Shown here: piece by piece, positions 2,655-41,387 of the stretch | Numbering within the stretch: position 1 is the first letter of the stretch | Layout: the number at the start of each line of letters is the position of its first letter | Source: a virus | Taxonomy: Duplodnaviria > Heunggongvirae > Uroviricota > Caudoviricetes | Reading direction: 5' to 3' (one strand) | Virus record (IMG/VR): IMGVR_UViG_3300045988_019467 | Length of the DNA stretch: 43,946 bases | Made by a program: the position numbers and the translations under genes | The notes under the pieces: generated by a model | Database searches by the model: none | The model's input: the letters and a program-made list of their open reading frames with translations, nothing else | Told to the model about the DNA's origin: nothing

Positions 2655-2674
2655 AAGGCCCCGAAAGGGGCCTT
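2655..2674. terminator. bidirectional intrinsic terminator hairpin (AAGGCCCC-GAAA-GGGGCCTT)
   Basis: Perfect 8-bp GC-rich stem with GAAA loop, flanked by an A-run upstream and T-rich run downstream; sits between convergent genes; identical 20-mer at 12429..12448. Confidence 0.6.
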
Positions 2675-2678
2675 AATT

Positions 2679-2999
2679 TTATAGCTTAAGTTCTTCCGGC
2701 ACATCCGGCACGGCGTTATATTCCCACCATTCAGAACCATCGTATTCTCCGCGAGAAGACCATGTACCATCTTCGTACCAAATTACCCCGAAGAAGTTTT
2801 GACCGCCATAACCGTTGTGATATTCAAAATCAAGTGCGACCATTAGGCTTTCCCATTCTCCGCGGGAGTAATTCTCCCGCAGGATCCATTTACTCCCCTC
2901 AACGAAACCGTAATCCGCGTCATAGTCTGCAAACCAGGCGCATTTAACTACATCTTTACCATCCAGATGGGCGAGCAACTCTTCTTTAGCATTAATCAT
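2679..2999 (-). CDS. hypothetical small acidic, aromatic-rich protein (moron)
   Basis: 106-aa minus-strand ORF inside the plus-strand head module; strong RBS AAGAGGAAG upstream of ATG 2999; about 22 D/E versus about 8 K/R with many W/Y/F. Confidence 0.55.
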   Translation of the reverse strand: MINAKEELLAHLDGKDVVKCAWFADYDADYGFVEGSKWILRENYSRGEWESLMVALDFEYHNGYGGQNFFGVIWYEDGTWSSRGEYDGSEWWEYNAVPDVPEELKL

Positions 3000-3024
3000 G
3001 TTTTCTTCCTCTTTGCCGTTTAAC

Positions 3025-3056
3025 TGAATAGTACCCTATTATATTGGTGTCTGCAA
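3025..3056 (-). promoter_or_regulatory. class-1 promoter-like element, copy 1 (on minus strand: TTGCAG-N7-TATAAT-AGGGTACTATTCA)
   Basis: Perfect TATAAT on the minus strand about 40 nt upstream of ATG 2999; conserved about 30-bp motif repeated at 5180, 15061, 37806 and 39002, each oriented toward the adjacent operon. Confidence 0.5.
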
Positions 3057-4633: not shown

Positions 4634-5155
4634 TTATTTAAATCGCGCAGGCATTAACACCATAAAGGCCGTGTTTGAAAATGATATTTTGCATCCTCTG
4701 GTTTGGTCCTGGAAATCGAAACGAGAAATTTCATTTTTGTACGCCTTAGAAATCTTGTACGCGTCTGCCAAATAACGCAGAGTGAACCCTATACTATCGA
4801 CAACACCCGGTGTGATGTGCGCCACGCGTTTCCAGTCAGGAAAGTTTCCTTCTACAACATCTACCGGAAGTGTACATATAAGCGCGCGACTATCGTCATA
4901 GAAAGAAACACTGCCGTTGTCGTGGTCTACCTCTGCGTAGTTAAATTTAGAAGGCTCTCTCCCTTTGATATCAATGAGAACCCCTTTCTCAACGTTTGTC
5001 TTCACATTGTCGCAGAACAATCTATGCCCATTCGTAGACACTATCAACCCCTCAGGTTCTATGTAAAAAGCGTTCAAATAGTAGCGCACATCGTTTTTAG
5101 CCCTGCAGATTTTCGCCCCTACATACGCAGGGAAAGTAATTACCGTAGTAACCAT
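4634..5155 (-). CDS. hypothetical protein (moron, unknown function)
   Basis: 173-aa minus-strand ORF with RBS AGGAGATG before ATG 5155; own promoter-like element and terminator; no motif recognised. Confidence 0.55.
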   Translation of the reverse strand: MVTTVITFPAYVGAKICRAKNDVRYYLNAFYIEPEGLIVSTNGHRLFCDNVKTNVEKGVLIDIKGREPSKFNYAEVDHDNGSVSFYDDSRALICTLPVDVVEGNFPDWKRVAHITPGVVDSIGFTLRYLADAYKISKAYKNEISRFDFQDQTRGCKISFSNTAFMVLMPARFK

Positions 5156-5179: not shown

Positions 5180-5211
5180 TGAATAGTACCCTATTATATT
5201 GGAGTATGCAA
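5180..5211 (-). promoter_or_regulatory. class-1 promoter-like element, copy 2 (on minus strand: TTGCAT-N7-TATAAT-AGGGTACTATTCA)
   Basis: Same motif as 3025..3056; TATAAT on the minus strand about 40 nt upstream of ATG 5155. Confidence 0.5.
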
Positions 5212-5263: not shown

Positions 5264-5306
5264 AACTATTCGAATAGTTGACTTTTCACTAAAAATATGC
5301 TAAGCT
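5264..5306 (+). promoter_or_regulatory. 16-bp perfect palindrome AACTATTCGAATAGTT overlapping a sigma70-like promoter (TTGACT-17-TAAGCT)
   Basis: Perfect palindrome at 5264..5279 built from the same CTATTC/GAATAG half-sites as the repeated operator; TTGACT at 5278..5283 and TAAGCT at 5301..5306. Confidence 0.35.
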
Positions 5307-14841: not shown

Positions 14842-15033
14842 TTACTTCTCTTTCACGTTCGAGTTGCAAGCCCAGATTAAAATAAATACCCACGGCAGCA
14901 GAACCCAACCAAGAAACAGGTTAGCCATGAATATAGCTAACTTCGCTTTATGGTTACGGAAGTACGCAACCAGGAAAGGTGCGAAATAAGCGAGCAGTGC
15001 AAACAGAATTAAGGAAACTGGTAAACTGGACAT
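14842..15033 (-). CDS. small membrane protein (two predicted TM helices), first gene of moron operon
   Basis: Hydrophobic 63-aa ORF; start taken at ATG 15033 preceded by AAGGGG (an upstream ATG at 15048 is also possible). Confidence 0.4.
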   Translation of the reverse strand: MSSLPVSLILFALLAYFAPFLVAYFRNHKAKLAIFMANLFLGWVLLPWVFILIWACNSNVKEK

Positions 15034-15060
15034 TTTAAACCCCTTCATTGTTGGTGTAAG

Positions 15061-15092
15061 TGAATAGTACCCTATTATATTGGGGTGTGCAA
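15061..15092 (-). promoter_or_regulatory. class-1 promoter-like element, copy 3 (on minus strand: TTGCAC-N7-TATAAT-AGGGTACTATTCA)
   Basis: Same conserved motif; TATAAT on the minus strand about 40 nt upstream of ATG 15033. Confidence 0.5.
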
Positions 15093-15199
15093 GTAATATG
15101 GTAGAATAATTTTGCGCCTAGTGTCGCACACGAAAAGCGGGTGGTTCCCGTCTGGCGCATTTCCTTTAACCAGTAACCTCTTAACCAAAGGATTAAAGA

Positions 15200-15616
15200 A
15201 TGAAACTTTCTGATTTTTATTACGAAGCTGAAGCCGAAAAGGGTGCGCGTATGCCGATACCGTTAAAAGACGGTACCGATTCTGGGGAATGGCTTAATGT
15301 TGTTTCTCCTGAGGCAGACGTTGCCGTTAAGGCTATGCGCGCGTTCACCCTTGCATACCGGGCAGTGTTAGGGAAATTAAAACCGCTTCGTGATAAGTGC
15401 GAAGAGATGAAAGATTTCTCTGAATACAACCTGAAGATGGAAGATGCGGCCACGGACCTTAACCGACAGTTAGCAATTGAATTGATTAACGGGTGGAGCC
15501 TGGACGACGAATTCAATAAAGAGAATCTGAACACACTCCTGACGCAATATAAACGACTCGCGGAACTTGTTGTTGTGTTTCATAACGAACAACTGCGCCA
15601 GTTACAGGAAAAGTAG
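15200..15616 (+). CDS. tail assembly chaperone (gpG-like, putative)
   Basis: 138-aa acidic ORF immediately upstream of the tape measure gene; a -1 frame ORF overlaps its end. Confidence 0.5.
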   Translation: MKLSDFYYEAEAEKGARMPIPLKDGTDSGEWLNVVSPEADVAVKAMRAFTLAYRAVLGKLKPLRDKCEEMKDFSEYNLKMEDAATDLNRQLAIELINGWSLDDEFNKENLNTLLTQYKRLAELVVVFHNEQLRQLQEK

Positions 15617-19325: not shown

Positions 19326-19687
19326 ACATTAACGACTACACGGGAATACCTTACGACTTTCGCAAACGCAATTGCTGGCATCATGTGCGTATTGTCCGTG
19401 CGGATGCCGGGTTAGCAACCCCGGCGTTCGACGCTACAAGCCCAACGGCAATTAACGAAGCGTTTGATGAAGGTCATCGTGACACGAAGGGGCTTACGAA
19501 AATTGATAAGCCTGAAAACTTGTGCGCGGTTCTTATGGGTAGGCGCCGCGGCGGCAGAATCGTGTGGCACGCCGGGGTCTACTTTGACGGAATGGTGAGT
19601 CATTGCGAAATGGCCTCCCGTCAGGTACGGCTTGACAGGCTTGTTGACCTAAGAGACTTGTACACGGAGATTGAATTTTGGCGATAA
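19322..19687 (+). CDS. tail assembly protein K-like (NlpC/P60-type fold)
   Basis: Cys/His pattern (NCWHHV ... VWHAGVYFDGMVSHCE) resembling NlpC/P60 catalytic residues found in gpK; position before the I/J-like gene. Confidence 0.5.
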   Translation: MNINDYTGIPYDFRKRNCWHHVRIVRADAGLATPAFDATSPTAINEAFDEGHRDTKGLTKIDKPENLCAVLMGRRRGGRIVWHAGVYFDGMVSHCEMASRQVRLDRLVDLRDLYTEIEFWR

Positions 19688-22224
19688 TCCTGCACTACAC
19701 GCGAAATGCTAACGGTGTTTTCGACCGTACAAAACACGTCGGGATGCCAATGGAGTTTGTTGTTAACCATATCCCTGACGGCGTTCCTGTGCGCGTATAT
19801 CTCGGTGAGATTGGTGACGACACCGATATCACTGACGACTTCGACGCGCTTAAAGACGAAGACGCGGTGTATCACATAGTAGAAGGAGCTGGTGGAGGTG
19901 CGCTTGTAGTAGGTGCGCTTGTTGCTTTGGTCGTCGTTGCGGCTACGGTTTTACTAACTAAGAAACCGAGTCTGGCGGTAACAGCGACAAATAACCAAGC
20001 AAAATCCGCTAATAACAGCCTAACAGACCGCTCCAACAAGCCGCGTCCTTACGAGCGCTCTTATGACATATGCGGGACTGTGCAGACAATCCCTAACGAC
20101 CTTATGCAGACGTACAAGGCGTTCAACTCCACTGGTGCTTTGCTGGAGTATTCGTACTATGACGCTGGTCGCGGGCATCTGCATATTGAGGCTGATGGCG
20201 TCACGGAAGGCGACACCCTGATAAGCGACATCACAGGTTCTTCTGTTGCCGTGTACGCCCCCTATACATCACCAAACAATACAACTACCCCGCAACTACA
20301 AATCGGCGACGTCATTGACCAGAAACTCTATGTGACGTACTCCAACGACGACGTTGACGGTATTGTACTGAAAGCACCGAACGATATCGGGGCCAACCCA
20401 AGCGCCGACGGCACCGCTAAACGTATTTCAAACACCGGCTACATCTATGACCCGTCAGGAGACTCTGCTTTTTCTGAGTTTCTTAGCGTCGGTGATGTGG
20501 CGGTGCTGAGCAACTTTGACGTTGCGGATGTCACTAACCTGAACGGCTCGTTTGAGGTTTTATACGTTGACGACTTCGAAGTAAGATTAGCCGTAAACGG
20601 TGCGTCTAACTGGGCCGCGTTGACCAGCGGACAGACGTACACGCTAACAGAGCGTTCAGATACGTTTATCGGCCCGAGCAACACATATGACGTATCTCTT
20701 ACGGACTGGTATTACATGGTACGCGGAGAAGTTGACCGGGTACTTGCTAACGTTGCCGGGCAGAACGGCCTCTACAAATACGACGGCGGCTATAACCGTA
20801 CCAGCGTAACCGTAGAACTCCAGTATCAGATGATTGACTCTCAGCGTAACCCGTTGGGCGATATTTACACGGTACAGGCTACAATTACAGGCAACAATAC
20901 GGATTACGTCGGTACGTCTATCTATGGCCAATTGCCGACAGCGTCTCGTTTCCGTGCCCGCATGCGCCGCGTAACGAATTTCGACAAGGACTACGACGGG
21001 ACGGTAAGTGACGAGATAACCTTCATCAACCTGTACGGGCAGTCACTGGACACAACCCCACACTACGGCAACCGAACTACCGTACATTGTGCCCGTAAAC
21101 AGACGCCGCGCGCTGCCAGTATTGATAACCCTGAACTGCGCATGATCGCGACCGAGATGTGCTACAAATACTTAGGCAATGGGGTATTCGATACGGTAAT
21201 GACACCAAACACTCAGGCCGTGCAGTCGCTAATCAGGCTGGCGCGCGACCCGGCGGTGGGTAATCTGGAACTGACAACGGCAAACATGGATAAGTTACTA
21301 TCCGTGCAGGAAGAAATAGAGTCCTATTTCGGAAGTGAATTAGCGGGGCAGTTCTGCTACACGTTCGACGACTACGACACCACGATGCAGGACATCGTTC
21401 AGACCATAGCGGAAGCCGTGTTCTGTACTGCGTACCGTAAAGGCGCGGATATTATGCTGCGATTCGACCGTCCTGTCGCGGGGCCTGAAATGGTATTCAC
21501 ACACCGCAGTAAGACAACTGGTACGGAGAAATGGACCCGCACGTTCAACGATTCGACAACCTACGATAGCCTGTCGTTCTCGTACATTGACCCTGATACT
21601 AACGTACAGGAAACGATTTATATCCCGGAAGAACTCGGCGCAAACACCGAGGAGTACGAATCGAAGGGGGTGCGCAACTACCAGCAGGCGTACTGGCTGG
21701 CGTGGCGCCGCTACCAGCGCAACACGTTAAGTAAAGTTGTCGTAGAGTTTGAAGCTACGGAAGAAGGTGCGCTCGCCACCCCCGGCGGGGTAATCAGCGT
21801 TGTTAAAGGCTCTCGCATTGCGCCGCAAGATGGTTATGTTGTTGCCGTTAATGGGCTTACACTGACATTGTCCCAGCCTGTTACGTTTACCCCCGGAGAC
21901 GACCACTCCATCATTCTTAAGAAGCGCGACGGCTCCGTACAGAGTATCTCCGTTATCAAAGGAAGTCATGACCGCGAAGTGGTTATGCTCTCCGCGCCGG
22001 AGGAGGCAATCTACACGGGGAATAGCGCGCTAAAAACTGAGTTTTCATTCGGCAACGAAGCAAGGCATAATGCTCAGAAGATAGTTGTTTCTTCAATAGA
22101 CCCGGGCGATGACCGCACGGTCAAGATTACTGGCTACAACTATGACGACGGATTCTATAAATACGACGGCGTCGCACCTTTAGGCCGCGGTTTCTCCGAC
22201 GGATTCAGCAATGGTTTTAATTAA
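19678..22224 (+). CDS. tail tip protein: gpI-like N-terminal segment fused to a host-specificity gpJ-like region
   Basis: N-terminal region ends in a Gly-rich hydrophobic stretch (GAGGGALVVGALVALVVVAATVLL); downstream RARMRRVT resembles the lambda J IRMRRMT motif; start uncertain (TTG 19678 or ATG 19744). Confidence 0.55.
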   Translation: MAIILHYTRNANGVFDRTKHVGMPMEFVVNHIPDGVPVRVYLGEIGDDTDITDDFDALKDEDAVYHIVEGAGGGALVVGALVALVVVAATVLLTKKPSLAVTATNNQAKSANNSLTDRSNKPRPYERSYDICGTVQTIPNDLMQTYKAFNSTGALLEYSYYDAGRGHLHIEADGVTEGDTLISDITGSSVAVYAPYTSPNNTTTPQLQIGDVIDQKLYVTYSNDDVDGIVLKAPNDIGANPSADGTAKRISNTGYIYDPSGDSAFSEFLSVGDVAVLSNFDVADVTNLNGSFEVLYVDDFEVRLAVNGASNWAALTSGQTYTLTERSDTFIGPSNTYDVSLTDWYYMVRGEVDRVLANVAGQNGLYKYDGGYNRTSVTVELQYQMIDSQRNPLGDIYTVQATITGNNTDYVGTSIYGQLPTASRFRARMRRVTNFDKDYDGTVSDEITFINLYGQSLDTTPHYGNRTTVHCARKQTPRAASIDNPELRMIATEMCYKYLGNGVFDTVMTPNTQAVQSLIRLARDPAVGNLELTTANMDKLLSVQEEIESYFGSELAGQFCYTFDDYDTTMQDIVQTIAEAVFCTAYRKGADIMLRFDRPVAGPEMVFTHRSKTTGTEKWTRTFNDSTTYDSLSFSYIDPDTNVQETIYIPEELGANTEEYESKGVRNYQQAYWLAWRRYQRNTLSKVVVEFEATEEGALATPGGVISVVKGSRIAPQDGYVVAVNGLTLTLSQPVTFTPGDDHSIILKKRDGSVQSISVIKGSHDREVVMLSAPEEAIYTGNSALKTEFSFGNEARHNAQKIVVSSIDPGDDRTVKITGYNYDDGFYKYDGVAPLGRGFSDGFSNGFN

Positions 22225-27600: not shown

Positions 27601-27918
27601 TTATAATTCCTTATATTGTTGGGGTATGTGCTTACTATAATAGTTCGCTATTAGGGTGTCAACCTGTTTTATCGAACCAACGACAAAAACATTTGCACCG
27701 CGTTTACGCATACGCTCATGCTCTCGTAACTGGTGGGGGTCTGGCTTCGTGTTTTCGTCTTTCTTAACCTCGACGAACCAGACGATGCTGTAGGGGAGAA
27801 TTACCAGCAGGTCAGGAGCGCCCACTCTATTTTCGTAGGAAAGTTTACGAACGAGGCCCCCCAGGGCCTCGAATCGCTCTTTTGCGTATTTCTGCACGCG
27901 CCCCTCAGGCGTACTCAT
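27601..27918 (-). CDS. VRR-NUC domain nuclease (PD-(D/E)xK fold)
   Basis: PD...(D/E)xK-like signature (GAPDLLVIL ... VEVKK) in an approximately 105-aa protein; start taken at ATG 27918. Confidence 0.55.
   Translation of the reverse strand: MSTPEGRVQKYAKERFEALGGLVRKLSYENRVGAPDLLVILPYSIVWFVEVKKDENTKPDPHQLREHERMRKRGANVFVVGSIKQVDTLIANYYSKHIPQQYKEL
27623..27662 (-). promoter_or_regulatory. class-2 promoter, copy 7 (minus strand: TTGACACC-N12-TATTATAGT), inside the 3' end of the VRR-NUC CDS
   Basis: Minus-strand TTGACA (plus 27657..27662) and TATAGT (plus 27634..27639) with about 18-bp spacer; near-identical elements at 31214..31242 and 34199..34228. Confidence 0.5.
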
Positions 27919-31213: not shown

Positions 31214-31242
31214 ACTATAATAGCTAACTATTCAGGTGTCAA
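31214..31242 (-). promoter_or_regulatory. class-2 promoter, copy 8 (minus strand: TTGACACC-N12-TATTATAGT)
   Basis: Minus-strand TTGACA (plus 31237..31242) and TATAGT (plus 31214..31219); about 50 nt upstream of the SSB-like ATG at 31161. Confidence 0.5.
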
Positions 31243-31397: not shown

Positions 31398-32644
31398 TCT
31401 AAATCCTCCTCTGTTACCTGATTCCACTCAGGCCGTTTGTCGTCTGCCGCTGCAACACATGGTGCCCCCGGCTTGCGTGTGATAAATGGCTCAAGCGCAG
31501 CCATCTCGTCCGCCGACAGAACTTTGGCGGCTTCTGTTGGTGACATCAAAACCTCTTTTTTGAGGATATCGCCGTGTGAAACTTCAATCGCGTCCGCGTC
31601 TTTCCACGCACGATTACCAGGGCGACCCTCAACCAGCTTGTACCCCGGCACTTTCTTGCCGGAATGCAACGCGGCAGACATCGCTTTCTCAACCTTGTCG
31701 ATGTGCTGGCGCAACAACGGCAGCTTCTCATACTCAGTTACGAGTTGCTCCGGTGTCAGTTCCGGCGCAAAGTCGTCTTCAAGTTCTTCCGCCAGCACCG
31801 CGTTAACGGTTTTTGTACGCGCAGCACACTGTTCAGAGAACCGGCACCACTGACAACCACCGACAGACGGCCTGAAGTCAGACGCTTTCAGATTCTTCTT
31901 GCCACGGAAATACGCATCAAGAGCCAACAGTGCACGTTTCTGCGCAAACTTAGCGAACAGTTCCAGACCTTCAACCGAGATGTCCCACTCCGACGCACCG
32001 CCAGCATACGGCTGGAAGATGACCAGACGAACCACGGTGATGTTATAACGCCTCTTTAGTCGGCGATAAACACCGAGAGCGTAAAGCATAAGCTGCTTGT
32101 TTTCTTTCGCTTCGACACGATGCCGCCCGGTTTTCAGGTCGCCGACGGTAAGCATGTGCTCGTCAGTGTTAGCCAATTCCTGAACGGCAACAAGGTCAGC
32201 GGTTCCGAACGTCTCAACGCCTTCGTAACCGGGATGCAATACCTCAGTAAGATTGACACGCATTTCCAGCTTGGCGTAAGTCGCTACATCGATAATCGCT
32301 TTGCAGTAGTCGGTATACTTGCGTACCTGCTCAATCATATCAGCCGTAATCAGTACCGCGCCTTTCATCGGACTGATTAGCGCCTTAATCTGGCCTTTAC
32401 CCTCATCCAGCACATAAGCACCGACTTCACGCTCTAACGGCAACGCAGTACCTTTGATGTACTGATTTAAATGGACCTCGGCTATGGTGTGACACGCGGT
32501 CCCTGTAACGGCAGCTTTACCAGACGTGTTAGGAATATCTTTTTCACAGGCCAGTGATGCACTGCACGTCAGCCACTTCTTAGCACCTGACGGCGATAAT
32601 AAGGCGTGCACATCGTTATTGCCACCGCGTTCTTTTAGAATCAT
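31394..32644 (-). CDS. PD-(D/E)xK exonuclease, Cas4-like (DUF2800-type) with C-terminal Cys cluster
   Basis: N-terminal HALLSPSGAKKWLTCSASL signature; C-terminal Cys cluster (GGCQWCRFSEQC) as in Cas4/AddB-type Fe-S nucleases. Confidence 0.6.
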   Translation of the reverse strand: MILKERGGNNDVHALLSPSGAKKWLTCSASLACEKDIPNTSGKAAVTGTACHTIAEVHLNQYIKGTALPLEREVGAYVLDEGKGQIKALISPMKGAVLITADMIEQVRKYTDYCKAIIDVATYAKLEMRVNLTEVLHPGYEGVETFGTADLVAVQELANTDEHMLTVGDLKTGRHRVEAKENKQLMLYALGVYRRLKRRYNITVVRLVIFQPYAGGASEWDISVEGLELFAKFAQKRALLALDAYFRGKKNLKASDFRPSVGGCQWCRFSEQCAARTKTVNAVLAEELEDDFAPELTPEQLVTEYEKLPLLRQHIDKVEKAMSAALHSGKKVPGYKLVEGRPGNRAWKDADAIEVSHGDILKKEVLMSPTEAAKVLSADEMAALEPFITRKPGAPCVAAADDKRPEWNQVTEEDLE

Positions 32645-33153
32645 TTCTCAGCCCCGTTAACTGTAAACCCATATTTAATCTCGGCTTGCCTACGAGCCTT
32701 AGCCGCGTTCTCTAACTTATCGTAGGCCCCTAAATAAATCGGCCTGCCGTCTACATAAATTCTCGCGACCCACTTACCGTAGCGTTTATGAAACCCAACA
32801 CCTTTAACCCCTGAAGTATTGTCCGTCCGTATGTTGGTGCCGTGTGCGATACTACCTCGGCGCATTTTTATAAGATTTTCTATTCTGTTATCAGTTCTAT
32901 CTTTATTTTTATGACGAATTACTTCCCCCGGCGCTATCGGCCCGTTAAACATCTCCCAAACTACGTGGTGGATAAGTTTAGTAGTCCCGTTAAAACGTAG
33001 TATTTTAAATTCACTCCCGTCGTTGTCCTCCCTCGTACTGCCAGCTTCTTGCCCTATTTTTACAGATTTTGACGGACTTATTTTCCAAAATAATTTACCG
33101 GTATCAGGGTCATAGTCAAAAACTTCATGCCAATTCATACTCTGCTCTCCCAC
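32641..33153 (-). CDS. HNH homing endonuclease with AP2-type DNA-binding domain
   Basis: HNH-like motif (IRHKNKDRTDNRIENL) and AP2-like segment (GVKGVGFHKRYGKWVARIYVDGRPIYLGAY). Confidence 0.65.
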   Translation of the reverse strand: MGEQSMNWHEVFDYDPDTGKLFWKISPSKSVKIGQEAGSTREDNDGSEFKILRFNGTTKLIHHVVWEMFNGPIAPGEVIRHKNKDRTDNRIENLIKMRRGSIAHGTNIRTDNTSGVKGVGFHKRYGKWVARIYVDGRPIYLGAYDKLENAAKARRQAEIKYGFTVNGAEK

Positions 33154-33407
33154 TGGTCAATTAAATGTCGTGTCTGGTGGTGGCAATGCATCGCCCATCC
33201 ATACATCGACTCGAAGACATAAAAGTCAGGTTTGGCGAAAGTCGTGCGCTTAATCTGCGACACGTGACGGCCTATATCTTTAGGCCGTGGTACTTTGCCT
33301 AAGTACGCCATCTCTTCCATCTGGTGCGCACCGGACGGCGCGCGCAACAGCCATAACGCCTCTGTGTTATCCCGCCGGTCAACGGCGCGGTAGAGTTGGT
33401 AAATCAT
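33135..33407 (-). CDS. hypothetical protein
   Basis: Start set at internal ATG 33407 (RBS GAGGG) to avoid overlap with the upstream gene; His/Cys-containing C-terminus. Confidence 0.35.
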   Translation of the reverse strand: MIYQLYRAVDRRDNTEALWLLRAPSGAHQMEEMAYLGKVPRPKDIGRHVSQIKRTTFAKPDFYVFESMYGWAMHCHHQTRHLIDQWESRV

Positions 33408-33419
33408 AATTCTGACCCT

Positions 33420-33443
33420 CAGTTTGGTGCCCTCAATAGCGAG
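33420..33443 (-). other. perfect 9-bp stem hairpin (GGTGCCCTC-N6-GAGGGCACC) in intergenic spacer
   Basis: Perfect inverted repeat between two co-oriented minus-strand genes; no U-tract. Confidence 0.35.
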
Positions 33444-33462
33444 GGCACCATAAGTTAAGTAG

Positions 33463-33990
33463 TTATTCTTCTTCGAAATACTTGTTCTTGATTGCCGTGA
33501 GGCGTTCCAGATATTCAGCCAGGTCTTCGTCTTTAATCGCGGCAATCTTCATTTTCTTACCGGTGAACTCTTCCAGTATTTCATCGGAATCGTCGCACGC
33601 GGCATCGCTCGGACCTTCGTTAATCGCATCGTCGATAGCCTGAATCTGGTCACGCAGAGACTGGTAATCGACTTCTTCTTCCGGCTCCGGTGTTGGTTCC
33701 TCTACAGGTTTAGGGGCTGGTTTTGATTTGCCAGGCTTGCGTTTCGGCTTCTCATCTTCTGCCGGTTTAGTGTCAACGACGTCTTCACCTTCAACCGGGA
33801 TTTCTTTCGCCTTCTCGACTTCTTCAAGTGCTTTAGCCAGTTCTTTTTTAACTGTCTCTACCCCCGTTACCGCGACGTCAACAGTCAATTCACCTACAGA
33901 TTTATTAGTCGGTTGTTTCACACTGTTCGCAGCAATCAGTTCATGCGCAACTACGAAACGTTCCAGTAATACTAAGAATTTCTCTAACAT
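33463..33990 (-). CDS. hypothetical acidic, Pro/Glu/Lys-rich protein
   Basis: 175-aa ORF with low-complexity PKPx/EEE region; stop and start coupled to neighbours. Confidence 0.45.
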   Translation of the reverse strand: MLEKFLVLLERFVVAHELIAANSVKQPTNKSVGELTVDVAVTGVETVKKELAKALEEVEKAKEIPVEGEDVVDTKPAEDEKPKRKPGKSKPAPKPVEEPTPEPEEEVDYQSLRDQIQAIDDAINEGPSDAACDDSDEILEEFTGKKMKIAAIKDEDLAEYLERLTAIKNKYFEEE

Positions 33991-34166
33991 TATTTGTTCT
34001 CCTGTTCGGCGATATTGTTAAGTTCTTTAAGAATGTCTTTCTGCATGTTTTCGGGTAAGAAACGGAATGCCTGAGTAATCATACCTTCAACATCCCCACG
34101 TCCTTCTAGGATGACGTTGGGAAACCACACTTTCCAGTTAGCATCATAATCTTTACGTTTAGCCAT
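33990..34166 (-). CDS. small hypothetical protein (first gene of leftward operon)
   Basis: 58-aa ORF with RBS GAGAGGAAAG downstream of class-2 promoter copy 6; stop overlaps the next ATG (TAATG). Confidence 0.4.
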   Translation of the reverse strand: MAKRKDYDANWKVWFPNVILEGRGDVEGMITQAFRFLPENMQKDILKELNNIAEQENK

Positions 34167-34187
34167 TTTGTTTCTTTCCTCTCGTTT

Positions 34188-34228
34188 GGTATGTGCTAAC
34201 TATAATAGCGAACTATTCATGGTGTCAA
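34188..34228 (-). promoter_or_regulatory. class-2 promoter, copy 6 (minus strand: TTGACACC-N13-TATTATAGT)
   Basis: Minus-strand TTGACA (plus 34223..34228) and TATAGT (plus 34199..34204); divergent from the Cro-like gene. Confidence 0.5.
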
Positions 34229-34292
34229 TGGGCTTTTCTAAAATAATTAATATGGTACTATTCACATATCAACTGACTAAGGAGTAATTGAC

Positions 34293-34508
34293 ATGCAACC
34301 ATCTGAACTAGGCATCCGTGTAGAACAACGCCGTAAAGAACTCGGTATCTCCCAGCGCCGTCTGGCTGTCCTGACCGGCGTTTCTCAGGGCGCGATTAAC
34401 CAACTGGCACTTGGGGTAACTCAGGACGTCCGCCCGGCGACGCTGTTTAAACTGGCGGAAGTGCTGGAAGTAGACGCTAAGTGGCTGGCGTTCGGTGAAG
34501 GGGCTTAA
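34293..34508 (+). CDS. XRE-family HTH transcriptional regulator (Cro/CI-like)
   Basis: Classic HTH_XRE pattern (ELGISQRRLAVLTGVSQGAINQLALG); RBS AAGGAG; transcribed opposite to the surrounding replication operon. Confidence 0.7.
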   Translation: MQPSELGIRVEQRRKELGISQRRLAVLTGVSQGAINQLALGVTQDVRPATLFKLAEVLEVDAKWLAFGEGA

Positions 34509-36825: not shown

Positions 36826-37059
36826 TTATTCCAGGTCTTCTAAAGTAGCGGTCATTCCGCGAACTTCGGCAACGGCACTATATTTCCCGCCAACATTTTT
36901 CACGACACCGGATTTAACCAGTACACGTAACGACCCTTCAATAATGGCTGAACTATAGTACTTAAAATAACTACGGCGCAAGTCCATAACGCTGCACGAC
37001 CTTTTTTTACGGGTTAATGAAACGACCGCCGTAAATACGCGTGACTGGAACTCTGTCAT
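36826..37059 (-). CDS. hypothetical protein (C-terminal ...TLEDLE)
   Basis: 77-aa ORF; ATG overlaps the stop of the upstream gene (ATGA). Confidence 0.4.
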   Translation of the reverse strand: MTEFQSRVFTAVVSLTRKKRSCSVMDLRRSYFKYYSSAIIEGSLRVLVKSGVVKNVGGKYSAVAEVRGMTATLEDLE

Positions 37060-37226
37060 TTCACATTCTCCTTAATCCAGGCTTCCACTTTCTCCGGGTC
37101 AAACGTACCGGGCTGACGACGACCCATAATACGGATACAGCAATCAGGGAACTTCCCACTCTTTAACCAGTTATTCAGCGTGCGACGAGTAACCCCGATA
37201 CGCTCAGCTACTTCATTCTGCGTCAT
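37056..37226 (-). CDS. small HTH DNA-binding protein (AlpA/excisionase-like fold, putative regulator)
   Basis: 56-aa ORF with HTH-like segment (QNEVAERIGVTRRTLNNWLKSGKFP). Confidence 0.4.
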   Translation of the reverse strand: MTQNEVAERIGVTRRTLNNWLKSGKFPDCCIRIMGRRQPGTFDPEKVEAWIKENVK

Positions 37227-37397: not shown

Positions 37398-37426
37398 AGT
37401 ATACATTGCGAATAATGGGAAATCAA
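37398..37426 (-). promoter_or_regulatory. sigma70-like promoter for the leftward operon (TTGATT-17-TATACT on minus strand)
   Basis: Minus-strand TTGATT (plus 37421..37426) and TATACT (plus 37398..37403) with 17-bp spacer, about 30 nt upstream of ATG 37365. Confidence 0.4.
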
Positions 37427-37703
37427 ACATAATCGCACCTATTGACATTATGAAAATCTTCGTTTAAGGTGCTTCTATATCTTAGTTACTTTGATTCCTG
37501 TTCACCTTGTAAGAATGTTTAACCCGTGCGTCAAGCAAAGGGTTAAACACAGGCTTACTGAACACAAGAATTATCGTAACTTTCCTTCCTTAGTATCTCC
37601 GGTTGCCCTGGGCAAGCTCTATTCTCATCAGCGGCATATCTCTTAAGTATCTGATTTTCTTAATGTGCCGTAGATTCGCAACCGTAAAAATGTAACGATT
37701 ATT

Positions 37704-37724
37704 GGGCAGGCTTAAGGCCTGCCC
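37704..37724. other. GC-rich hairpin (GGGCAGG-CTTAAGG-CCTGCCC) in the large intergenic control region
   Basis: Inverted repeat around a CTTAAG core, with only a short T-tract after it. Confidence 0.3.
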
Positions 37725-37805
37725 TTTAGTTACCAAGTAACAAGAATAAAGGCACAACCTTTCCTGAAGAATCACAACGGCAACGTAACCATTTTCAATG
37801 AATCT

Positions 37806-37838
37806 CTTGCGCACCCCAACATAATAGGATACTATTCA
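37806..37838 (+). promoter_or_regulatory. class-1 promoter-like element, copy 4 (TTGCGC-N7-CATAAT-AGGATACTATTCA)
   Basis: Same motif as the minus-strand copies, here on the + strand about 45 nt upstream of ATG 37870. Confidence 0.5.
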
Positions 37839-38466: not shown

Positions 38467-38635
38467 CCGCACCTTTATTTTGAGAGAAGCGTTCGAACGG
38501 TGGGCCGTCGTTGAGGGTCTGCCGGTTAACAAGGGTTCAAAGAAAGAGTACCTGAACGTTAAGACGCGTCTCGCGTGGCGGGCGTGGAAAGCTGGTGTGC
38601 AATCCTTGATTGAAAGAGGTGTGAGATATGGGTAA
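38459..38635 (+). CDS. hypothetical small protein
   Basis: 58-aa ORF overlapping both neighbours at start and stop. Confidence 0.3.
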   Translation: MNSRTFILREAFERWAVVEGLPVNKGSKKEYLNVKTRLAWRAWKAGVQSLIERGVRYG

Positions 38636-38840
38636 GTGGATTAAGTGTAGTGAGCGGATGCCGCCGAAAATGACAGGCGTTCTTGTAGCTACAGAGTTTG
38701 GACATAAAGGCGATTGGCGGATGAAGTGGGCTACTTATATCCCCGGTCATCCTGACGCTGATGATGGGTGGCTAATTCCTGGGGCTTCCTGGAAACCGTC
38801 ACACTGGATGCCGCTACCTGAGCCACCTTCGCTGGTATAA
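38628..38840 (+). CDS. DUF551-like small protein
   Basis: Pattern W-x-C-SERMP...GVLVAT...W...P...WMPLPEPP, recalled as typical of the phage DUF551 family. Confidence 0.45.
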   Translation: MGKWIKCSERMPPKMTGVLVATEFGHKGDWRMKWATYIPGHPDADDGWLIPGASWKPSHWMPLPEPPSLV

Positions 38841-38885
38841 CAGGTGGTGTAACAGGTCAATAGCTTACTATTTTACTGAGTGACT

Positions 38886-38925
38886 TACGCTGCTACACAG
38901 CAGCGTATCATTTTTCTCATTTTTG
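38886..38925 (+). terminator. intrinsic terminator (TACGCTGCT-ACAC-AGCAGCGTA + T-rich tail)
   Basis: 9-bp perfect stem followed by TCATTTTTCTCATTTTTG. Confidence 0.6.
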
Positions 38926-39001
38926 TTCTATTTCACCAAACGCAACAATCGAAGCGACTATTGCAGGAGATGCAACAATATAACACACCAATAAAATTTA
39001 C

Positions 39002-39033
39002 TTGCACACTGGGATAGAATAGGCTACTATTCA
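39002..39033 (+). promoter_or_regulatory. class-1 promoter-like element, copy 5 (TTGCAC-N7-TAGAAT-AGGCTACTATTCA)
   Basis: Same motif; + strand, about 45 nt upstream of ATG 39062 and just after the terminator. Confidence 0.5.
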
Positions 39034-41303: not shown

Positions 41304-41324
41304 ATCTATTTTCTGCTATGACTA

Positions 41325-41353
41325 GTTGACTAATACCATCGACCCTATTATAT
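41325..41353 (+). promoter_or_regulatory. sigma70-like promoter (TTGACT-17-TATATT) containing the CCCTATTATATT half-motif
   Basis: TTGACT at 41325..41330 and TATATT at 41348..41353; shares CCCTATTATATT with the class-1 elements. Confidence 0.4.
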
Positions 41354-41387
41354 TTACTCCATCGACAACGAGAACGGAGTAGAGAAG

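Follow-up and report, generated by a model that had tools for sequence, protein, structure and literature searches.

The segment at positions 34,188 to 34,292 of the window (by which we mean the whole stretch of DNA analysed, 43,946 nucleotides long) holds two copies of one palindrome, AATAG-N4-CTATT, each within a predicted promoter and both close to the gene of a small Cro-like helix-turn-helix (HTH) protein. The window is a Kagunavirus genome (Guernseyvirinae), that of a virulent E. coli phage. The following features make up the locus.

34199..34228, minus strand: predicted class 2 promoter TTGACA-N18-TATAGT, 11/12 consensus, driving a leftward operon from 34166
34204..34217: perfect copy of the candidate operator (AATAGCGAACTATT), an exact match in the spacer of this leftward class 2 promoter, adjoining the Cro-like gene
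34249..34262: imperfect copy AATAT-GGTA-CTATT, one mismatch, in the Cro-like gene's own predicted promoter
34293..34508, plus strand: Cro/CI-type HTH protein of 71 aa (Pfam HTH_3, E 2.3e-12)

The Cro-like gene stands back-to-back with a palindrome-bearing promoter and has a weak copy in its own promoter, in both Kagunavirus and Jerseyvirus. The perfect copy at 34204 has a counterpart at the orthologous position, -88/-89 relative to the HTH gene, in practically every one of the 36 Kagunavirus loci. The gene's own promoter is predicted to have its -10, TACTAT, at 34256..34261 and a weak -35. The initial annotation saw a mere half-site here, at 34254..34265; we find instead a full one-mismatch copy, which is imperfect in all Kagunavirus relatives, the left arm reading AATAT and never AATAG. 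The corresponding Jerseyvirus promoter reads TACTATT with a degenerate left arm.

The palindrome is by no means confined to this locus. Exact matches number 10 in the window (starting at 3027, 5182, 15063, 21315, 27639, 31219, 34204, 37823, 38859, and 39018) against 0.04 expected, and none of 100 shuffles got to 10. In a scan of every 5+gap+5 palindrome with gaps of 0-8, AATAG with gap 4 ranks first with its 10 copies, the second-ranked palindrome having 4. The earlier claim of at least ten copies, far over chance, thus holds. The distance from AATAG to CTATT is 4 in all ten, other gaps occurring at most once each. A further three conserved copies carry one or two mismatches (34249, 5273, and 41321). 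Eight of the ten exact copies lie inside sigma-70-type promoters, three of class 2 and five of class 1, confirming that the same palindrome is embedded in both classes. Outside the locus, the sites and the one palindrome-free promoter are as follows.

3027..3040: perfect copy, in a leftward class 1 promoter at ~3028..3056 (minus strand) of a 106-aa ORF cassette
5182..5195: perfect copy, in a leftward class 1 promoter at ~5183..5211 (minus strand) of the 173-aa ORF 4634..5155
5273..5286: imperfect copy AATAG-TTGA-CTtTT, over the -35 of a rightward class 3 promoter, TTGACT (5278..5283)-N17-TAAGCT (5301..5306)
15063..15076: perfect copy, in a leftward class 1 promoter at ~15064..15092 (minus strand) of an Imm / exonuclease / PNKP-phosphatase cassette
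21315..21328: exact copy inside the tail gene 19678..22224
27639..27652: perfect copy, exact, in the spacer of the class 2 promoter 27634..27662 (minus strand), upstream of helicase and methyltransferase genes
31219..31232: perfect copy, exact, in the spacer of the class 2 promoter 31214..31242 (minus strand), upstream of ssDNA-binding protein and DNA polymerase genes
37398..37426, minus strand: palindrome-free sigma-70-type promoter TTGATT-N17-TATACT, driving an operon of HTH_17, a 77-aa protein, and a helicase-primase
37823..37836: perfect copy, overlapping the -10 of a plus-strand class 1 promoter (TTGCGC 37807..37812, N17, TACTAT 37830..37835) driving small rightward ORFs
38859..38872: perfect orphan copy lacking a convincing -35, flanked by the stop of ORF 38628..38840 and the terminator 38886..38907
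39018..39031: perfect copy, overlapping the -10 of a plus-strand class 1 promoter (TTGCAC 39002..39007, N17, TACTAT 39025..39030), upstream of small ORFs and lysis genes
41321..41334: imperfect copy AcTAG-TTGA-CTAaT, over the -35 of a rightward promoter at 41326..41354 (TTGACT-N17-TATATT), ahead of small ORFs and terminase genes

Both the 27639 and the 31219 copies have orthologues in Kagunavirus, Jerseyvirus, and the Serratia phage Smarc3. The 3027 copy is overlapped by a rightward promoter match, TTGCCG-N18-TATTAT, and its class 1 cassette (2679..3043, with the 106-aa ORF) is absent from Bas73, so promoter and gene appear to travel together. The 5273 copy had first been taken for a 16-bp perfect palindrome at 5264..5279 with no obvious promoter. 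It is better read as a one-mismatch copy whose centre and right arm form the -35 TTGACT, with an extra CTATT upstream, and it is identical in Bas73. The copy at 41321 reads AcTAG-TTGA-CTATT in most relatives, and the Jerseyvirus orthologue is AATAG-TTGA-CTAgT. As had been noted before, the 38859 copy has no obvious promoter; it is conserved in ~8 Kagunavirus loci and decayed in Bas73. The intragenic copy at 21315, on the other hand, should be dropped from any functional tally: it is probably due to chance or lineage-specific, since its Bas73 counterpart (AATtG..gTATT) has two mismatches. The promoter at 37398..37426 is the sole good sigma-70-type promoter that lacks the palindrome, and in relatives it lies directly before the HTH_17 start codon.

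The promoters fall into three classes, which differ in where the palindrome lies. Class 2 (TTGACA-N17/18-TATAGT, three sites) matches the consensus at 11 of 12 positions with spacers of 17-18 bp, and the best three sigma-70 matches within 24-44 kb are exactly these three sites. Here the palindrome lies wholly within the spacer, between -35 and -10 as originally described; the opposite strand reads CTATTAGGG or similar and has no usable -10. Class 1 (TTGCAC-N17-TACTAT, five sites) is weaker and stays under the promoter-scan threshold, with invariant spacing; the palindrome overlaps the -10, its right arm forming part of TACTAT. The initial annotation placed the class 1 palindrome downstream of the -10, with TATAAT in that role. 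This would put TTGCAC only 7-8 bp upstream, whereas its distance to TACTAT is exactly 17 bp, and the final two centre bases are invariably TA in class 1 only. For both reasons we prefer TACTAT, and most likely the palindrome is not downstream of the -10 at all. Class 3 comprises two rightward promoters with an imperfect palindrome over the -35, the left arm lying upstream of that hexamer. The one at 41326 matches the consensus at 10 of 12 positions (a CTATT separate from the operator copy also precedes its -10); the one at 5278 has fewer consensus matches and is uncalled by the promoter scan. Taking the start as 7 nt past the -10, the predicted registers are ~ -40 to -27 for class 3, ~ -25 to -12 for class 2, and ~ -19 to -6 for class 1. 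The palindrome thus overlaps the consensus -35, spacer, and -10 of predicted promoters, respectively. A reading as an RNA hairpin was set aside: the sites fall upstream of the predicted start, and five A/U-rich base pairs would make a weak stem.

Comparison among 37 Kagunavirus and 12 Jerseyvirus sequences reveals arms that are nearly invariant and a centre and flanks that vary freely. Counts for classes 1 and 2 were anchored on the promoter hexamers only, so that the arms themselves played no part in selecting the sequences. Of 64 unique Kagunavirus sequences in class 2, 57 are exact in both arms and another six show one mismatch, and in class 1 the arms are exact in 25 of 26 unique sequences. 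The N4 centre and the 4-5 nt adjoining the -35 take many values. Since CTATT touches the -10 in classes 1 and 2, either adjoining or overlapping it, part of this arm conservation could be promoter-related. Where the arms deviate, they do so mostly at half-site position 2 or at position 13, which mirrors it. The class 3 copy with ACTAG is kept imperfect among relatives, and the weak half-site is the left one in Kagunavirus and the right one in Jerseyvirus. A two-fold symmetric reader would not tell a left-weak from a right-weak class 3 site; the symmetric deviations and the half-site swap therefore fit a symmetric dimer, not RNA polymerase. Jerseyvirus has the same palindrome in the same promoter classes, and in Smarc3 four sites deviate from it by no more than one mismatch (0.53 expected); three of the four occupy orthologous promoters. 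The Cornellvirus-type phages vB_STM-ZS and FSL SP-031 have no palindrome enrichment; their orthologous promoters are kept and the arms have decayed. In short, this 14-base palindrome in nearly every promoter of the phage and its relatives is genuine and well conserved. The earlier proposal that it may be the operator of a dimeric regulator in most promoters gains strong comparative support from the arms, the symmetry, the three registers, and the conserved imperfect copies.

As to the protein that would bind it, the 71-aa Cro-like protein is the best candidate. Its closest PDB sequence is phage 434 Cro (E 2.1e-6, residues 6-68), likewise of 71 aa. The AF2 model has five helices (pLDDT 77.6), and in a Foldseek search it comes closest to 434 Cro and to the DNA-binding domain of the 434 repressor. 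The protein is found in Kagunavirus, Jerseyvirus, and Smarc3, and no other recognisable DNA-binding protein is common to all the palindrome-bearing lineages examined; in Smarc3 no palindrome copy adjoins the HTH gene. Kagunavirus and Jerseyvirus versions are 49% identical, most shared proteins being at 70-92%. The recognition helices read SQGAINQL in Kagunavirus, SQSLITHL in Jerseyvirus, and SQGMLNHL in Smarc3, with the same operator arms in all three, and the Cornellvirus-type homologue has a Jerseyvirus-like helix, TQSAISHL, and no palindrome. Across these four groups, the helix neither co-varies with the operator half-site nor is conserved alongside it. All this counts against the Cro-like protein, as do its low identity between the two genera and the missing copy beside its gene in Smarc3. 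Its first Gln is conserved; in phage 434, whose operators are 14 bp, the outer A is read by the first Gln of helix 3. No prophage homologues with the same helix and nearby palindromes were found: an alignment scan of genome contigs gave one Jerseyvirus contig and unrelated XRE proteins, and word-indexed protein searches with both HTH proteins returned close relatives only. One locus with a 36% HTH match (L057) proved unrelated and had no palindrome.

Two other small proteins come into consideration, both encoded behind the palindrome-free promoter.

37056..37226, minus strand: 56-aa HTH_17 (Xis/MerR-like) protein, Pfam PF12728
36826..37059: 77-aa protein adjoining HTH_17, which looks winged-helix by eye

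The match of HTH_17 to MerR_1 is weak and falls short of the Pfam cut-off, and the helix-turn-helix of this protein hardly differs between Kagunavirus and Jerseyvirus. A 90-aa protein (phrog_4965, within 33135..33545) at first seemed to share the palindrome's phylogenetic profile. It was dropped because relaxed tblastn found a weak ZS homologue (E 9e-5) and the protein has no DNA-binding signature.

Several known systems resemble this arrangement in part. The 434 operator is, like this palindrome, a two-fold symmetric 14-bp site with an outer A and a non-conserved centre that overlaps the promoter core. The half-sites differ, however, AATAG (5+4+5) here against ACAA-N6-TTGT (4+6+4) in 434, and the equivalent of 434 Gln29 is Gly or Ser in the Cro-like proteins here. 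Unlike in the 434/lambdoid switch, there is no CI partner, OR1-3 triplet, integrase, or lysogeny module, judging from the Bas73 annotation. The operators are scattered over ~11-12 promoters in three registers, whereas those of 434 cluster at two control regions. A lambdoid immunity switch is thus not what we find, as neither CI nor integrase is annotated in Bas73 and the sites are dispersed rather than tripartite. The lambdoid Enterobacter phage CobraSix has a Cro homologous to the Cro-like protein (38% identity), and in its genome the same scan picks out five 14-bp ACAG-N6-CTGT sites, placed at the OL and OR positions. CobraSix is temperate (CI, CII, integrase, Q antiterminator), and its operators, unlike those here, are confined to the immunity region. 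The restriction-modification (R-M) controller proteins C.AhdI and C.BclI are also among the fold-search matches. Such C proteins are small HTH_3 dimers whose palindromic sites (C-boxes) lie in their own promoters, and the switching they bring about is delayed and depends on concentration. Their targets are one or two R-M promoters, which they both activate and repress, whereas here there is no R-M context and the sites are genome-wide. Finally, MerR-type activators bind a dyad between -35 and -10, as in class 2, and HTH_17 has a MerR-like helix-turn-helix. The spacers here are of an optimal 17-18 bp and not the 19-20 of MerR-type promoters, and HTH_17, at 56 aa, would from its length be too short for the dimerising coiled coil. 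Moreover, unlike MerR-type sites, the palindrome also lies over the -10 and -35 and persists in a phage that lacks HTH_17.

That the operator is real and its binder another phage protein (HTH_17, the 77-aa protein, or an unrecognised small protein) strikes us as unlikely, despite some points in its favour. HTH_17, at 88% identity between Kagunavirus and Jerseyvirus, is much easier to reconcile with an unchanged operator than the Cro-like protein, at 49%. Cornellvirus-type phages have neither HTH_17 nor the 77-aa protein, and no palindrome either, and HTH_17 is the first gene behind the only good palindrome-free promoter. A Kagunavirus RNA-seq study with coarse time points (PMC12645636) lists an 'HTH domain' gene among four early genes, which by gene order would be HTH_17. 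However, proteins of the HTH_17/Xis type generally act as monomers on single sites or direct repeats, a mode unlike recognition of a 14-bp inverted repeat, and the 77-aa protein has no Pfam match. Smarc3, too, speaks against this reading: its entire 40 kb yields no homologue of HTH_17 or the 77-aa protein by tblastn, even at E up to 10, and it keeps the palindrome in three orthologous promoters. HTH_17 was downgraded for this reason. Of the two binders originally put forward, the Cro-like protein therefore stays the best, being 434-Cro-like and present in all the lineages, and the 56-aa HTH protein is disfavoured. Very unlikely, in our view, is a host (Enterobacterales) transcription factor that ties the phage promoters to host physiology. 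The motif is indeed common to Escherichia, Salmonella, and Serratia phages while the phage candidate diverges, but we know of no E. coli regulator with an AATAG-N4-CTATT site, and Cornellvirus phages also infect Salmonella yet lack the motif. Imperfect copies, graded and conserved, at the promoter of the phage regulator itself in turn suit autoregulation by a phage protein.

A different matter is whether a dedicated regulator is needed at all. The element could be intrinsic to the promoters, a portable core spread by cassette duplication, its two CTATT-type arms acting as -10-like elements for divergent or bidirectional transcription or otherwise favouring polymerase. The contact of CTATT with the -10 in classes 1 and 2, and its place before the -10 at 41326, would agree with this, as would the Bas73-lacking cassette 2679..3043, in which promoter and gene move as a unit. 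At the three structural-region class 1 sites, moreover, the opposite strand reads CTATTATATT (TATTAT/TATATT) and faces the rightward late genes; one of these is the TTGCCG-N18-TATTAT promoter called by the scan. Still, we regard this as quite improbable. Both class 2 arms fall within the spacer, a region in which sigma-70 is largely indifferent to sequence and the reverse strand offers no usable -10, and the left arm of class 3 falls upstream of the -35. The arms stay invariant while the adjoining spacer bases drift, and their symmetric deviations and the swap of half-sites between genera suit a two-fold reader rather than polymerase. Further, the orphan copy is conserved in several genomes although it lacks promoter hexamers, and Cornellvirus retains the orthologous promoters without the palindrome. 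The motif itself is already reported as a 'phage promoter' by PHIRE. The promoter passage of the fBC-Eco01 (Kagunavirus) genome note gives the consensus tgAATAGTa-ccTATTat-T (PMC9825357), which matches the class 1 core once reverse-complemented and is thus the same sequence. That passage lists the motif as a promoter, with seven copies labelled by the authors as phage-RNA-polymerase promoters. The corresponding passage for VB_EcoS-Golestan gives seven PHIRE hits by number and not their sequences, and in neither passage do dyad symmetry, class 2 or 3 copies, or a repressor appear. Our literature searches found no operator description for Jersey-like phages. That a phage-encoded RNA polymerase reads the motif is, however, scarcely conceivable. 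No RNA polymerase gene occurs among the ORFs of the window, and none is annotated in Bas73, a close and carefully annotated relative. All window ORFs above 600 aa match Bas73 tail, tailspike, tape-measure, DNA polymerase, or helicase-primase genes, and canonical sigma-70 hexamers at 17-18 bp spacing accompany the sites.

On balance, we lean towards AATAG-N4-CTATT being the 14-bp operator of a phage homodimeric HTH repressor, likeliest the 71-aa 434-Cro-like protein, that would act as a Cro-style temporal switch. We infer here the transcription start sites, the identity of the binder, repression upon binding, and the temporal order. The operator would be built into host sigma-70-type promoters in three registers, in each of which a dimer on the site would keep RNA polymerase out. 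The perfect copies lie on the strong leftward replication promoters, the promoters of the leftward accessory cassettes, and the rightward promoters of small ORFs and lysis genes. Copies with one weak half-site, which would be weak by design, lie on the regulator's own promoter and the two rightward promoters toward the head and packaging genes. As the protein level rises, the early promoters would be shut first, and the late promoters and the regulator's own would be affected last. If nearly all promoters carry a site, late-gene escape would rest on this proposed graded affinity. The outcome would be a Cro-style temporal switch with negative autoregulation in a phage that has no lysogeny module. 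Such a palindrome with a putative small Cro-like repressor is a familiar type of phage circuit, and this reading does not open up a new type of mechanism.

A bolder extension, which we put forward tentatively and with rather less than even confidence, is that the single Cro-like protein serves as the genome-wide clock of a strictly virulent phage, with register and half-site strength tuned and cassettes bringing their own promoter-operator. About a dozen host-type promoters would each carry one operator, with the tuning conserved across genera, and one rising repressor level would order replication, accessory, lysis, and structural transcription. Accessory cassettes arriving with their own promoter-operator unit would plug in at once.

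Guernseyvirinae (Kagunavirus and Jerseyvirus) are among the phages most often isolated on E. coli and Salmonella for therapy and food biocontrol, and a 'repressor' annotation in this subfamily regularly leads workers to ask about hidden lysogeny. Should the Cro-like protein time the lytic cycle by way of these operators, this would explain why a virulent phage retains a repressor. It would also correct the published label of the motif as a phage-RNA-polymerase promoter and provide a compact map of the transcription programme, with ~12 promoters, three operator registers, and graded sites. For those who engineer Guernseyvirinae phages, it would supply orthogonal promoter-operator parts.

The palindrome AATAG-N4-CTATT is a real, strongly selected regulatory element. 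The window holds 10 exact matches where 0.04 are expected, which confirms the enrichment claimed in the initial annotation, and in a scan of all 5+gap+5 palindromes it ranks first with these 10 copies, the next best having 4. The same palindrome is also top-ranked (7 copies) in the close relative GertrudWoker_Bas73 (Bas73). The arm-to-arm spacing is 4 without exception. Permitting one mismatch adds three sites (5273, 31277, and 34249); with two, the total of 22 is no longer enriched over the 15.4 expected by chance, so only near-exact copies matter. Over the whole window, the + strand contains 60 CTATT and 27 AATAG half-sites, each being expected ~43 times, an asymmetry that may be a codon or strand-composition effect.

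The window itself represents all or nearly all of the genome of a virulent E. coli siphovirus, a Kagunavirus (Guernseyvirinae). Its 30-40 kb stretch is ~90% identical to phages ZCEC5, phiWAO78-1, and Bas73, and its gene order is that of Bas73, in which no integrase, CI-type repressor, or RNA polymerase is annotated. The layout is as follows:

1-24 kb, rightward: packaging, head, and tail genes, broken by three short leftward cassettes
24.4-34.2 kb, leftward: replication block
34293..34508, rightward: small helix-turn-helix (HTH) gene
34.5-37.4 kb, leftward: helicase-primase operon
after the helicase-primase operon, rightward: small ORFs, lysis genes, further small ORFs, and the small terminase

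Within the replication operon, a 170-aa ORF (32641..33153, - strand) is probably a mobile insertion. It is 36-37% identical to its counterparts in the Jerseyvirus wksl3 and in vB_STM-ZS, against 80-94% to wksl3 for the neighboring genes, and its C-terminal part resembles, by eye, the AP2-type DNA-binding domain of a homing endonuclease. Judged from flanking-feature coordinates, ~360 bp between two divergent promoters (37440..37800) are apparently missing from Bas73. None of the ORFs in this stretch is convincing; it has a TTGACA-like box near 37443, and the hairpin at 37704..37724 resembles a strong terminator. The stretch may be an inserted element or may encode a small RNA. In vB_STM-ZS, noncoding positions 14883..15243, 3' of the helicase-primase gene, carry dense GGGGGAGA-type repeats and could form an iteron-like origin region.

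Read in their own direction of transcription, the copies fall into three arrangements relative to the predicted promoters, next to a few single cases:

27639, 31219, and 34204, all leftward: class 2, TTGACA-N4/5-AATAG-N4-CTATT-ATAGT
3027, 5182, and 15063, leftward, and 37823 and 39018, rightward: class 1, cTTGCAc-N10-AATAG-nnTA-CTATT-CAnTTA
41321: class 3, a near-match whose center and right arm contain the -35 TTGACT of the rightward promoter TTGACT-N17-TATATT (41326..41354)
5273: class 3, a near-match whose center and right arm contain the -35 TTGACT of the rightward promoter TTGACT-N17-TAAGCT (5278..5306)
34249..34262: promoter of the HTH gene itself, with a one-mismatch copy of class 1 type, AATAT-GGTA-CTATT
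38859: orphan copy between a stop codon and a terminator
21315: intragenic copy within a tail gene

In class 2, the promoter comes close to the sigma-70 consensus (TTGACA-N17/18-TATAGT) and holds the palindrome entirely inside its spacer; the three sites are the best promoter matches within 24-44 kb. For class 1, the initial annotation had put the palindrome downstream of the -10, for which it took a TATAAT-like sequence; lying just 7-8 bp from TTGCAC, this sequence was rejected. Exactly 17 bp separate the conserved TTGCAC from TACTAT, to which the final two center bases and the right arm contribute, and the center ends in TA in 26/26 unique class 1 sequences, being free in class 2. Given this spacing and the class 1-specific TA, we infer that the class 1 palindrome instead spans the spacer and the predicted -10. 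Likewise, what had been described as a half-site at 34254..34265 belongs to the one-mismatch full copy at the HTH gene's promoter. Both class 3 promoters lead to terminase and head genes.

On the opposite (+) strand, the three leftward class 1 sites, all in the structural region, read CCCTATTATATTGG (TATTAT/TATATT; 3013..3042, 5190..5200, and 15071..15081), facing the rightward late genes, and one of them was scored by the promoter scan as an opposite-strand TTGCCG-N18-TATTAT promoter; these modules may be bidirectional promoters around one common operator. The leftward cassette at 2655..3043 comprises a 106-aa ORF (2679..2999) with a class 1 promoter-operator of its own, plus a bidirectional terminator (2655..2674). 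It is flanked by the portal and head-morphogenesis genes; Bas73 lacks it, with 36 bp separating the two genes. Accessory genes appear to travel together with their own promoter-operator unit. Directly 5' of the orphan palindrome, a tandem repeat (38835..38858) reads GGTATAACAGGT then GGTGTAACAGGT, and a terminator follows at 38886..38907, an arrangement kept in several relatives.

We compared 36 Kagunavirus loci around the HTH gene, 12 Jerseyvirus loci, and the whole genomes of wksl3, the Serratia phage Smarc3, vB_STM-ZS, and FSL SP-031, anchoring sequences on promoter hexamers only, so that the arms were not conditioned on. The palindrome occurs at matching relative positions in essentially every Kagunavirus. 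Both arms are exact in 57 of the 64 unique class 2 sequences (one mismatch in 6) and in 25/26 of class 1, with wide variation in the four center bases and in those between the -35 and the left arm. Where an arm deviates, the change is almost always at position 2 of the half-site or at its mirror, position 13. Imperfect copies are kept imperfect: the one in the promoter of the HTH gene itself always reads AATAT in the Kagunavirus loci, and 22/25 unique class 3 sequences contain one, and only one, ACTAG half-site. Jerseyvirus shows the palindrome in the same promoter classes, with one arm fixed as AATcG at the promoter adjoining the HTH gene; its class 3 (AATAG-TTGA-CTAgT) carries the same weak half-site on the opposite side of the dyad. 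The intragenic copy is not conserved, and the orphan is kept in ~8 loci, not in Bas73.

Such a pattern is what a two-fold symmetric DNA-binding protein would predict. RNA polymerase contacts do not predict it; both class 2 arms lie in the spacer and one class 3 arm lies upstream of the -35. The repeated sequence itself is already known, not new: in Kagunavirus fBC-Eco01, PHIRE recovered it (consensus tgAATAGTa-ccTATTat-T) and the authors attributed it to a phage RNA polymerase (PMC9825357), an enzyme that these phages lack. For VB_EcoS-Golestan, a similar count of seven PHIRE promoters is reported. We consider AATAG-N4-CTATT likely to be a protein operator. The earlier idea of a dimeric regulator's operator holds up in that arms, symmetric deviations, and half-site swap fit a two-fold symmetric binder, the class 1 position relative to the -10 being one part that had to be revised.

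The 12 Jerseyvirus loci also keep a one-mismatch copy, AATAT-TTTT-CTATT, ~+3700 to +4700 from the HTH gene (window ~38915..38930), directly after the terminator preceding the second class 1 promoter; being T-rich, it may be a mere terminator tail. A 19-kb contig of a 'Taishania pollutisoli' assembly (Bacteroidota; NZ_JACVEL010000022.1), of which 8.2 kb were examined, has palindromes at the usual offsets and a Jerseyvirus-type Cro-like protein equal to that of wksl3 over the first 70 residues, and is probably a contaminating phage contig.

The window encodes two recognizable HTH proteins and one winged-helix look-alike. The 71-aa product of 34293..34508 is of Cro/CI type (Pfam HTH_3). Among solved structures, 434 Cro, of the same 71-aa length, is its closest relative (E 2e-6), and its AF2 model is a five-helix bundle with 434 repressor and 434 Cro as top fold matches. 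In 434, each operator is a two-fold symmetric 14-bp site whose central bases are not contacted; the first glutamine of helix 3 reads the outer adenine, and Gln29 reads positions 2-3. The present operator has the same length and likewise an outer A, and the first glutamine of the recognition helix is kept; unlike in 434, the Gln29 equivalent is Gly or Ser, which, speculatively, fits the tolerance of half-site position 2. As a positive control for the scan, the lambdoid Enterobacter phage CobraSix, whose Cro is a 38%-identical homologue, has five 14-bp ACAG-N6-CTGT sites (11106, 11130, 11915, 11938, and 11960) that flank the genes for CI and Cro, where OL and OR would be expected. In Bas73 (PQ850603.1), the 97%-identical gene (34027..34239) was revealed only by tblastn, the record annotating an opposite-strand 31-aa ORF (Bas73_0051) there.

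The other HTH protein, HTH_17 (37056..37226; 56 aa, Xis/MerR-like), adjoins a 77-aa protein (36826..37059), the winged-helix look-alike, which has no Pfam match. Both belong to the sole good promoter without the palindrome, TTGATT-N17-TATACT (37426..37398, - strand), whose spacer holds a unique 14-bp dyad, CATT-ATTCGC-AATG (37404..37417), which may be a second, separate operator. Ahead of this HTH_17/helicase-primase operon, all 17 nt of the spacer are invariant across 11 unique Kagunavirus sequences, and the sequence 3' of the -10 varies.

Occurrence of the palindrome and its candidate binders
Kagunavirus: palindrome present; Cro-like protein present; HTH_17 and 77-aa protein present
Jerseyvirus: palindrome present; Cro-like protein present; HTH_17 and 77-aa protein present
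Smarc3: palindrome present; Cro-like protein present; HTH_17 and 77-aa protein absent
Cornellvirus type (vB_STM-ZS, FSL SP-031): palindrome absent; Cro-like protein present; HTH_17 and 77-aa protein absent

This distribution cuts both ways for the Cro-like protein. Its Kagunavirus and Jerseyvirus versions share just 49% identity, against 70-92% for most proteins that the two have in common and 88% for HTH_17, and its recognition helix is not conserved alongside the operator, reading SQGAINQL or SQSLITHL in lineages with the same operator. Moreover, Cornellvirus-type phages keep a homologue (TQSAISHL) and orthologous promoters without the palindrome, HTH_17 being missing there too. On the other hand, Smarc3, a syntenic relative with 50-75% protein identity, has the palindrome in three orthologous promoters (TTGACA-gctg-AATAG-AATA-CTATT; TTGACA-gcct-AATcG-CAAA-CTATT-ATAGT; and one of class 1 type), with four sites of at most one mismatch versus 0.53 expected, and its genome encodes the Cro-like protein and no HTH_17 or 77-aa homologue. 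No other small protein common to all palindrome-bearing lineages has a DNA-binding signature. For these reasons the Cro-like protein is, on balance, the most likely binder; given the divergent helices, we hold this identification more loosely than the view that the system works like a Cro operator.

Depending on the promoter, the operator would span about -40 to -27, -25 to -12, or -19 to -6. Such varied positions make it implausible that the site activates from one fixed geometry; the simple reading would be repression by occlusion. Perfect operators lie on the strong replication promoters, on the leftward accessory cassettes (one encoding an Imm superinfection-immunity protein and a PNKP-type phosphatase), and on the two rightward class 1 promoters; weakened ones lie on the promoter of the regulator itself and on the pair of rightward promoters that lead into the late genes. 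Judged from sequence, this suggests a Cro-like timer with negative autoregulation, and we infer that increasing amounts of the regulator would silence the early promoters before, or more than, the late ones. The one transcriptome found, with a time resolution too coarse for promoter order, lists an HTH-domain gene among four early genes and, among the middle genes, a 'specific DNA binding' gene beside an AAA-domain gene (PMC12645636).

Our literature search found no paper that describes the site as a dyad, places it in the spacer or over the -35, notes that imperfect copies are conserved, or links it to the Cro-like protein. By analogy, the system would work like a 434-type Cro-operator pair; with no CI, tripartite operators, or lysogeny genes, it is not a lambdoid immunity switch. 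There is a clear and cheap experimental path to testing this regulatory palindrome.
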